A DNA stretch of 64,000 bases from Escherichia coli (lineage in GTDB: Bacteria > Pseudomonadota > Gammaproteobacteria > Enterobacterales > Enterobacteriaceae). The position numbers and the translations under genes are program-made. Location: NCBI RefSeq assembly GCF_024298765.1, contig NZ_CP101210.1; one strand, written 5' to 3'. Positions 32,563-36,240 of this stretch are shown here, piece after piece. Numbering within the stretch: position 1 is the stretch's first letter; the number at the start of each line of letters is the position of its first letter. Under the pieces are notes generated by a model. That model saw only the letters and a program-made list of their open reading frames with translations. It had not been told where the DNA came from and searched no databases.

Positions 32563-33495
32563 ATGTGGTCAGAATATTCACTCGAGGTTGTTGATGCGGT
32601 AGCGCGTAATGGTAGTTTTAGCGCTGCGGCACAGGAGTTGCATCGCGTTCCTTCTGCGGTCAGCTATACCGTGCGTCAGCTGGAAGAGTGGCTGGCGGTG
32701 CCGCTGTTTGAACGACGTCACCGTGATGTGGAACTGACCGCTGCCGGGGCGTGGTTTCTCAAAGAAGGGCGCTCTGTTGTCAAAAAAATGCAGATCACCC
32801 GGCAGCAATGTCAGCAGATAGCGAACGGCTGGCGCGGTCAGTTAGCTATCGCAGTGGATAATATTGTCAGGCCAGAACGTACACGGCAGATGATCGTTGA
32901 TTTTTATCGCCATTTTGATGATGTCGAACTTCTTGTCTTTCAGGAAGTGTTCAACGGTGTCTGGGATGCGCTTTCCGACGGGCGCGTGGAACTGGCGATT
33001 GGCGCAACACGCGCGATTCCGGTAGGCGGTCGTTATGCCTTCCGCGATATGGGGATGCTAAGCTGGAGTTGCGTTGTTGCCAGCCACCACCCGCTGGCGT
33101 TGATGGATGGCCCGTTCAGCGATGATACGTTGCGCAACTGGCCGTCGTTGGTGCGCGAAGACACCTCGCGAACGCTACCTAAACGTATTACCTGGTTGCT
33201 GGATAACCAAAAAAGACTTGTCGTGCCTGACTGGGAATCATCGGCAACCTGTATCTCGGCAGGATTATGCATAGGGATGGTGCCAACACATTTCGCCAAA
33301 CCGTGGCTTAATGAGGGGAAGTGGGTAGCACTAGAACTGGAAAACCCCTTCCCGGATTCGGCATGTTGTCTGACATGGCAGCAAAATGATATGTCGCCTG
33401 CGTTAACCTGGTTGCTTGAGTATCTCGGCGATAGTGAGACGCTGAATAAGGAGTGGCTGCGGGAGCCGGAAGAGACTCCCGCAACAGGTGATTAA
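32563..33495 (+). CDS. punR: LysR-family transcriptional regulator (PunR/YdhB)
   Basis: 310-aa ORF with N-terminal HTH, divergent from punC. Confidence 0.9.
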
Positions 33496-34517
33496 CGACG
33501 ATAGTCGCGGAACGGGCCGTCAGCCACGGAGCGGCGTTCAATCAACCGCGGATGCACTTCAATGGACTGCGGTTCTTCACGTTTGTTGACGATACGATCC
33601 AACAGCATGTTGAACGCTGTTTCGCCCAGCGAATCTTTTGGCTGATGGATCGTGGTCAGCGCCGGCGTAAAATAGCGGGCGTTGCGCACGTTATCATAAC
33701 CGATCAGCGAAACATCCTGCGGGACGCGCAGACCCATTTCATCAGCAGCACAAAGTGCGCCCATTGCCATGATATCGCCACCACAGAAGACGGCAGTAGG
33801 GCGATGCGGCTGCGACAGGATTTGCTGCATGGCGCGATAACCGGATTCAGGTTCAAAGTCACCCTGCACAATCCAGCTTTCCGGCACTTTGATCATCGCT
33901 TCTTCCATCGCCTTCATAAAACCGGCAAGGCGGCCTGCGCCGGTGTTACGTTCCAGCGGGCCAGGGATAACGCCGATTTCGCGATGACCGCGTTCAATCA
34001 GATAACGCCCGGCCATGTAGCCGCCTTCGAATGCGTTATCAATGACCGCATCGGTGAAGTCAGCTTTTGCTTCACCCCAGTCCATCACCACCATTGGGAT
34101 ATGGCGATACTCTTCCAGCATCGCCAGCAACGGCTCTGGGTACTCAGAACACATCACCAGCAGACCATCGACGCGTTTTTGCGCCATCATCGACAGATAA
34201 GCCCGCTGTTTCTCAAGATTGTTCCACGCATTGCCCAGAATCAGGGTGTAACCTTTCTGGAAGCAATTTTTTTCAACCGCTTCAATGATCTCGGCAAAAT
34301 AGGCCGCTTCGCTGCTGGTCGCCAGCAAACCGATAGACTTGGTGTGGTTAACCTTCAGGCTACGCGCCACCGCGCTAGGGGAGTAGTGTAATTCTTTAAT
34401 CGCTGCCCACACGGCGTTGCGCGTTTCTTCAGCGACGAAACGTGTTTTGTTGATCACGTGTGACACAGTTGTAGTGGAAACGTTTGCTCGTTTCGCTACA
34501 TCTTTTATTGTTGCCAT
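33492..34517 (-). CDS. purR: Purine repressor PurR (LacI family)
   Basis: 341-aa [39 protein letters not shown]... recognised as PurR. Confidence 0.96.
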
Positions 34518-34561
34518 TCCATTTCACTCCAGACCCTAACTTCAGCTCCTGCAAAATCGCA

Positions 34562-34577
34562 AGGTAAACGTTTGCCT
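34562..34577. promoter_or_regulatory. PurR-box-like palindrome upstream of purR
   Basis: AGGTAAACGTTTGCCT resembles the PurR operator consensus ACGCAAACGTTTGCGT; purR is known to be autoregulated, but the exact operator positions are not verified here. Confidence 0.45.
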
Positions 34578-34815
34578 TTACACACCTTACGCACAACAAA
34601 AGTGTTGCGGTACGCCGGAAAAACGACACGGAGCGTCAGGAAGGGGTCAATGGCCAGTACGCAAATAGTGTAAGCGTGGAATTTTGGCCGATCTTGACGA
34701 AAAGGGGAAGTGGTAAAAACACTTATCATTATAAATGACGGGAGATTTTTTCATCACAGTGTGTAAAAATGCGTAATATCACTTTTTGTGTGGTAATAAA
34801 AAAGGAGAAAACTTG

Positions 34816-34905
34816 ATGAGCACCGACCTTAAATTTTCACTGGTAACAACGATTATCGTCCTCGGTTTGATCGTGGCCGTGGGTTTGACAGCCGCGCTGC
34901 ACTGA
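34816..34905 (+). CDS. ynhF: Small hydrophobic protein YnhF (29 aa)
   Basis: ATG preceded by AAAGGAGAAAACTTG (Shine-Dalgarno); encodes MSTDLKFSLVTTIIVLGLIVAVGLTAALH; below the 60-aa cutoff of the ORF track. Confidence 0.75.
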   Translation: MSTDLKFSLVTTIIVLGLIVAVGLTAALH

Positions 34906-35070
34906 TTTCCTCTCGAGGGAGCGCGTTCTCCCTCGCATCTCCTTCCTGTTTGTTAGCAAAATGGCAAAAGTGTTTTCTCTTTTTGTTATTTTCATTTTTT
35001 TGTGATTGCTGTCATGCTTTCGCCACTTTAATGAATATCGCGTAATGACGCGAAGAGGTGGAGATAAGGC

Positions 35071-36240
35071 ATGAAAATTAACTATCCGTTGCTGGCGCTG
35101 GCGATTGGCGCGTTTGGTATCGGGACAACGGAGTTCTCGCCAATGGGCTTATTGCCCGTCATTGCGCGCGGTGTGGATGTCTCGATTCCCGCTGCCGGAA
35201 TGTTAATCAGTGCCTATGCAGTTGGCGTAATGGTTGGCGCGCCGCTGATGACGCTTCTACTTTCTCATCGTGCTCGCCGCAGTGCGTTGATTTTCCTGAT
35301 GGCGATTTTCACGCTCGGCAACGTACTTTCCGCCATCGCGCCGGATTATATGACGCTGATGCTTTCACGCATTTTGACCAGCCTGAATCACGGAGCATTT
35401 TTTGGTTTGGGTTCAGTTGTGGCCGCAAGCGTGGTGCCAAAACATAAACAGGCCAGCGCAGTTGCCACTATGTTTATGGGGTTAACCCTGGCAAATATCG
35501 GTGGCGTTCCGGCAGCGACCTGGTTGGGCGAAACCATCGGCTGGCGGATGTCATTTCTGGCAACGGCGGGGCTGGGCGTGATTTCAATGGTAAGTCTGTT
35601 CTTCTCATTACCTAAAGGTGGCGCAGGGGCGCGACCTGAAGTGAAAAAAGAGCTGGCGGTATTAATGCGTCCGCAGGTGCTGTCTGCATTGCTGACGACG
35701 GTACTGGGAGCTGGTGCAATGTTTACCCTCTACACCTATATCTCTCCGGTACTGCAAAGTATTACCCACGCAACGCCGGTGTTCGTTACGGCAATGCTGG
35801 TGCTGATTGGTGTCGGATTCTCTATCGGTAACTATCTCGGCGGCAAACTGGCAGATCGTTCAGTTAACGGCACGTTGAAAGGCTTTTTGTTGCTGCTGAT
35901 GGTGATTATGCTAGCAATCCCGTTCCTGGCCCGCAATGAGTTCGGCGCAGCTATTAGCATGGTGGTGTGGGGAGCTGCAACCTTTGCGGTCGTACCGCCG
36001 TTACAGATGCGCGTGATGCGTGTCGCCAGTGAAGCGCCTGGTCTGTCTTCATCAGTCAATATTGGTGCCTTTAATCTTGGAAATGCGCTGGGAGCTGCTG
36101 CTGGTGGTGCGGTAATTTCCGCTGGGCTGGGATACAGCTTTGTGCCGGTGATGGGGGCGATTGTCGCGGGACTGGCATTATTGCTGGTGTTTATGTCAGC
36201 CAGAAAACAACCTGAGGCAGTTTGCGTTGCCAACAGCTAA
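35071..36240 (+). CDS. ydhP: MFS transporter
   Basis: 389-aa hydrophobic ORF recognised as YdhP. Confidence 0.9.
   Translation: MKINYPLLALAIGAFGIGTTEFSPMGLLPVIARGVDVSIPAAGMLISAYAVGVMVGAPLMTLLLSHRARRSALIFLMAIFTLGNVLSAIAPDYMTLMLSRILTSLNHGAFFGLGSVVAASVVPKHKQASAVATMFMGLTLANIGGVPAATWLGETIGWRMSFLATAGLGVISMVSLFFSLPKGGAGARPEVKKELAVLMRPQVLSALLTTVLGAGAMFTLYTYISPVLQSITHATPVFVTAMLVLIGVGFSIGNYLGGKLADRSVNGTLKGFLLLLMVIMLAIPFLARNEFGAAISMVVWGAATFAVVPPLQMRVMRVASEAPGLSSSVNIGAFNLGNALGAAAGGAVISAGLGYSFVPVMGAIVAGLALLLVFMSARKQPEAVCVANS

Follow-up and report, generated by a model that had tools for sequence, protein, structure and literature searches.

A 29-codon frame between purR and ydhP in Escherichia coli corresponds to cydH, the stand-alone gene for the fourth subunit of cytochrome bd-I

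In the cryo-EM map of Escherichia coli cytochrome bd-I, Thesseling et al. (2019) found a single-helix subunit, the fourth of the enzyme and not expected there; they identified it by mass spectrometry as YnhF, proposed the name CydY and concluded that it blocks an O2 channel to heme b595 that is open in the Geobacillus enzyme (PMC6853902). As that paper relates it in citing earlier work (Hemm 2008/2010 for low oxygen), YnhF is located in the membrane, is made at low oxygen and keeps its N-terminal formyl-methionine (PMC6853902). [quoted passage not shown] Intact CydH, with 100% coverage of its 29 residues and formylation of the initiator, was detected by top-down mass spectrometry (PMC12529367), and recent high-resolution structures show a CydA-CydB-CydX-CydH heterotetramer (bioRxiv 10.1101/2025.10.10.681541).

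The closest described counterparts of CydH are CydX (37 aa), CydS and AppX, likewise very small CydA-binding subunits of a single helix, which annotation overlooked for a long time (PMC12648545, PMC8951039). CydH shares no sequence similarity with them. CydX is encoded within the cydABX operon, sits on the opposite face of CydA (TM1, 5 and 6) and is required for assembly and stability, whereas the gene for CydH lies outside that operon, and the protein binds at TM1/TM9 and has been proposed to act as a gate to heme b595. The two oxidases also differ in this respect, since bd-II contains AppX and no CydH-like subunit (PMC8585947).

We analysed a stretch of 64,000 nucleotides of E. coli DNA (contig NZ_CP101210.1), referred to here as the window. 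A sequence-only reading of the window had claimed that an ATG preceded by a Shine-Dalgarno sequence opens a small gene between purR and ydhP. Direct translation confirmed a frame of 29 codons and a TGA stop with the product MSTDLKFSLVTTIIVLGLIVAVGLTAALH, and AAGGAG was read directly from the sequence 8 nt 5' of the ATG (Table 1). The coordinates of the neighbours agreed as well: purR lies 298 nt upstream on the opposite strand and ydhP starts 165 nt downstream, with sodB beyond ydhP. The frame stands alone between purR and ydhP, outside the cydABX operon, which in K-12 maps far from purR.

The peptide is strongly hydrophobic (GRAVY 1.63), and hydropathy on the Kyte-Doolittle scale is highest over the 19 residues 10-28, with a mean of 2.53. 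These values and the length of 29 aa agree with the single transmembrane helix that had been predicted, and PDB entry 6RKO shows a single helix for the identical chain. The claim that length-thresholded ORF calling misses the gene also held. The mechanical ORF list included it only at a reduced threshold of 20 aa, in the form of a 39-aa ORF started at a TTG, so that the usual length cut-offs hide it. Its absence from the ORF track of the sequence-only reading is plausible.

Table 1. Positions of the features discussed, numbered from the first letter of the window.
Feature	Position	Strand	Evidence
purR	33492..34517	-	
PUR box, purR operator O2	34474..34488		reported GalR ChIP site
GCTCGTTTCGCTACA, fit to MarA/RamA motif	34486..34500		lies within purR codons
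Rfam STnc550 (RF02081) match	34518..34908	+	full-length match to the model
PUR box AGGTAAACGTTTGCCT, purR operator O1	34562..34577		reported GalR ChIP site; conservation across genera
Conserved upstream region	34606..34815		pairwise difference in alignment
Block probably within purR 5' leader	34606..34665		pairwise difference in alignment
Terminator-like hairpin and T run	34638..34624	-	
Candidate purR promoter TTCCCC-17-CAAAAT	34709..34681	-	98-100% conserved
Candidate extended -10 TGtAAAAAT	34762..34770	+	own weight-matrix scan and conservation
39-aa TTG-started ORF	34786..34905	+	ORF list at 20-aa threshold
Shine-Dalgarno AAGGAG	34802..34807	+	read directly; SD core in 72/72 loci; block conserved in alignment
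cydH (ynhF/cydY) CDS	34816..34905	+	translation, RefSeq and K-12 annotation, NF033411, 6RKO chain H, orthologues, pN/pS
52-aa antisense ORF	34837..34995	-	ORF finder
GC-rich stem-loop CGAGGGAG-CGCGTT-CTCCCTCG	34914..34935	+	folding of window sequence
T-rich block	34951..35025		conservation
ydhP	35071..36240	+	

Comparison with K-12 MG1655 showed that the same ORF is annotated there as cydH (b4602, 1737456-1737545, minus strand). Over the whole purR-ydhP spacer of 553 nt, only 34875 and 34890 differed from K-12, and each is a synonymous third position of cydH. A query of 556 nt around the ORF found a match in 5425 of 5426 complete E. coli genomes, and 'cydH: cytochrome bd-I accessory subunit CydH' was annotated in all fully covered rows of the 30 sampled across the ranking (29/30). 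In strain 104 the query was matched with 100% DNA identity, and WP_000102278.1 is annotated at the same place. One of the 5430 places that match the spacer is in a plasmid record, not a chromosome.

The product was identical over 29 of 29 residues to 6RKO chain H, deposited under 'Uncharacterized protein YnhF / CydH', and to chains in seven further PDB entries. It also matched the NCBIfam equivalog NF033411 (small_mem_YnhF) over profile positions 1-29 of 29, with 50.2 bits against a cut-off of 30. Scanning our local copy of Pfam with CydH gave no match, and PF28012 is listed for every CydH homologue in a large protein database. The current name of the gene is cydH, with ynhF and cydY as older or other names (UniProt A5A618). 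The equation with K-12 YnhF made from the letters was thus right, except that the name ynhF is outdated and that the small protein, formerly an orphan, is now established as a bd-I subunit. The K-12 protein has the same 29-aa sequence, and its gene has the same purR-ydhP slot, Shine-Dalgarno sequence and start; there is no difference of substance, and the window holds the same gene in another E. coli strain.

These results indicate, with a probability that we put at about 0.97, that the frame is cydH, a stand-alone gene encoding a 29-residue, one-helix inner-membrane protein that retains its formyl-methionine and forms the fourth subunit of cytochrome bd-I on CydA. The gene exists, its translation begins at the ATG at 34816, purifying selection on it is strong, and purified bd-I physically contains its product. 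It is an already known gene, annotated in RefSeq and in K-12, with solved structures and detection by mass spectrometry, and nothing about it is new. No evidence against the identification was found, and its weak points concern mechanism only.

A natural loss of the locus was observed in the clinical isolate E. coli G749 (NZ_CP014488.1), the sole record among the 30 sampled that is without most of the region. A deletion in this strain joins ribE to ydhP; the genes that normally lie between these two are lost, cydH and purR as well as others that in the window include punR and punC. Because the locus is deleted there, cydH is dispensable at least in the G749 background.

The evidence for coding is comparative. 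A degenerate back-translation of codons 1-16 was searched against 100,044 species genomes (298 Gb); the pattern carries about 45 bits, and the number of chance matches in 298 Gb was estimated at well under one. The search returned 71 loci from about 18 genera, all Enterobacteriaceae and all in the same syntenic slot. Loss of the reading frame in close relatives had been set beforehand as a refutation, and it was not seen, as all 70 of 70 complete orthologues kept the frame at exactly 29 codons. Across 69 distinct orthologous DNA sequences, column entropy at codon positions 1, 2 and 3 was 0.40, 0.22 and 1.21, respectively, and the pooled pN/pS over all codons was 0.16. Since amino acid conservation in codons 1-16 is forced by the search pattern, the test was rerun on the unconstrained codons 17-29, where pN/pS was 0.196 and the two shifted frames gave 1.56 and 2.29. 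Since the 4 kb around it are overlapped by 68 ORFs of 20 aa or more, a frame this short is uninformative alone; it is conservation that lifts this one above chance, and the substitution pattern shows that cydH evolves as a protein-coding sequence under strong constraint.

The setting of the gene was conserved together with its frame. The purR start was found 288-304 nt upstream and divergent in 66 of 66 loci with enough flank, and ydhP lay downstream in 65 loci. Linkage to ydhP is not universal, because Salmonella enterica subsp. arizonae and one Pluralibacter sp. have no ydhP and carry sodB directly after cydH. A purine-rich Shine-Dalgarno core, mostly AAGGAG, was present 6-16 nt 5' of the ATG in all 72 loci. 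The in-frame TTG (34813) that adjoins the ATG of E. coli cydH is deleted in Atlantibacter and Siccibacter, and the ATG is therefore the conserved start.

Further homologues were searched for with a query padded with 11 X residues and with a profile headed by a 30-aa variant. The profile search of 1.84 billion representative proteins gave only 84 matches at E ≤ 0.001. The divergent full-length matches retrieved were nearly all 29 aa long, and their named sources were Serratia, Dickeya, Musicola, Mangrovibacter, Cedecea and Enterobacillus. The CydH family thus extends several genera past the set found with the DNA pattern, still at a length of 29 aa.

Downstream of the frame, an 8-bp stem-loop without a U tract begins 8 nt past the stop codon. 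The 50 nt after the stop had a folding energy of -10 kcal/mol or lower in 67 of 71 loci, and the stems varied in a compensating manner (GAGGGAG/CTCCCTC, GGGGGAG/CTCCCCC, AAGGGAGAG/CTCTCCCTT). A U run followed the hairpin in only 6 of 71 loci, and a canonical intrinsic terminator after cydH was rejected because most genera have no U tract. The hairpin is probably the 3' end or a stabiliser of the cydH mRNA. Between this hairpin and ydhP, a T-rich block was conserved (pairwise difference about 0.15-0.35) and its flanks were not; it presumably belongs to the promoter or regulatory region of ydhP.

Upstream, a standard promoter scan of the plus strand found no sigma-70 consensus site. Our own weight-matrix scan, weighted by conservation, pointed to a candidate extended -10 element inside the 12-nt block TGTG[T/C]AAAAATG, which was invariant in 68 sequences save at the 'n' of TGn. 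With this element, transcription would be predicted to start near 34777 and the leader to measure about 39 nt, so that cydH may have its own promoter about 40 nt upstream and a transcript ending at the conserved hairpin. On the minus strand, the conserved TTCCCC-17-CAAAAT would fit the purR promoter. No FNR, CRP or ArcA box that could explain the reported low-oxygen induction of cydH was better than chance (about two sites per motif expected at ≤3 mismatches).

Two PUR boxes correspond to the purR operators O1 and O2, and both have been reported as GalR ChIP sites (PMC5110547). O1 was nearly invariant across genera (pairwise difference 0.06) and corresponds to the ynhF/purR site bound by GalR and PurR. 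A Salmonella MarA/RamA ChIP peak has been reported at purR<>ynhF (PMC10268841), and GCTCGTTTCGCTACA, within the purR codons, fits the MarA/RamA motif GCCCGTTTCGCTACA of that peak. The block 34606-34665 contains, on the minus strand, a terminator-like hairpin with a T run after it (TGACGCTCCGTGTCG TTTTTCC); this could serve purR as an attenuator or as another regulatory structure.

The conserved upstream region as a whole had a mean pairwise difference of 0.16-0.24, compared with 0.48 and 0.50 at the third codon positions of cydH and ydhP, respectively; it is about as conserved as the coding sequence and shows less than half the variation of synonymous sites. Its part farthest from cydH (0.16 against 0.48 at synonymous sites) probably lies in the purR 5' leader. 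We consider it unlikely that these roughly 210 nt hold, beyond two promoters, a long regulatory leader or dual-function RNA, or a control region shared by purR and the oxidase. If true, a shared control region would couple expression of the purine repressor to assembly of a microaerobic oxidase.

A related alternative is that the locus is, or is also, STnc550, an enterobacterial sRNA of about 390 nt in which the ORF would be incidental or secondary, as in a dual-function RNA. Rfam model RF02081 shares the DNA of the cydH region and matched it from end to end with 395.9 bits against a gathering score of 48. The low divergence of about 200 nt 5' of the ORF and the reported trimming of the ynhF mRNA leader by RNase G (PMC4191395) also agree with an RNA function. 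However, the model begins one base past the purR ATG and ends 3 nt past the cydH stop, and these limits are boundaries of the intergenic region and the ORF rather than of a transcript. The coincidence of the ends with the purR ATG and the cydH stop suggests that the limits were set from intergenic boundaries, and whole-intergenic coordinates were given by Sittka 2008 for unmapped STnc candidates.

The content of the model likewise argued against a structured RNA. Its most regular consensus hairpin in Rfam is the palindromic PUR box, a DNA operator bound by PurR and GalR, and its last 93 nt are the validated cydH CDS, which varies in a codon pattern. RNAalifold on 68 orthologous sequences gave a consensus of only -4.87 kcal/mol and a leader without supported helices, and a conserved RNA fold in the cydH leader was rejected on this result. 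On all three counts STnc550 does not behave as a non-coding RNA with conserved structure. Two back-to-back promoters and the purR leader explain the upstream conservation more simply. STnc550 is typed as a non-coding sRNA, yet its 5' part consists of the purR leader and operator in antisense, and the cydH CDS makes up its 3' quarter. The family probably represents an mRNA or intergenic region entered under the wrong type, not a structured sRNA, and nothing requires a dual-function RNA at cydH, a reading to which we give very little weight. A full-text literature search for 'STnc550' found no paper.

It is still less probable that the real product differs from the 29-residue peptide, being either the 39-aa form started at TTG 34786 or the product of the 52-aa antisense ORF. 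The ORF finder lists both, and one antisense frame is free of stops across the cydH CDS in 71 of 71 loci. However, TTG 34786 lies 5' of the Shine-Dalgarno sequence, and both the 6RKO chain and the species seen by top-down mass spectrometry start at fMet-Ser-Thr-Asp. The stretch from 34786 to the ATG carries small indels in several genera (alignment columns 206, 211 and 218), and the bases just 5' of the ATG, TTG 34813 among them, are deleted in Atlantibacter and Siccibacter; the 39-aa form was rejected on these grounds. A conserved antisense ORF was also rejected, as the longest ATG-started antisense ORFs ranged from 0 to 105 aa across the loci, and true coding frames commonly leave one antisense frame free of stops as a by-product. 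That cydH is an untranslated chance frame in intergenic DNA, as the abundance of ORFs of this size and the silent local Pfam scan might suggest, is practically refuted by its fixed length and start, the conservation of its Shine-Dalgarno sequence in at least 70 species, a pN/pS of 0.16-0.20, and detection of the peptide by mass spectrometry and cryo-EM, including solved structures that contain the exact peptide.

CydH inserts into the inner membrane and binds CydA, completing the CydA-CydB-CydX-CydH bd-I ubiquinol oxidase. According to the published structures it lies in the cleft between TM1 and TM9 of CydA, where it shields heme b595 from the membrane and blocks the wide O2 entry route used by the Geobacillus enzyme; the path that O2 takes to heme d is instead a narrow hydrophobic channel beginning in CydB. 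Structures suggest channel blocking as the physiological role of CydH, and no report of a delta-cydH phenotype was found in the accessible literature.

No new biology follows from the finding. Its value is mainly that of a quality check, the scan having correctly picked up a genuine gene of 29 codons that is lost to ORF callers with a length threshold. Annotation pipelines should adopt the current name cydH, and a change of type is probably due for Rfam STnc550, under which a protein-coding mRNA and a promoter region are labelled as an sRNA. The gene recovered in this way encodes a real subunit of a respiratory oxidase, an enzyme that serves as a drug target in pathogens.
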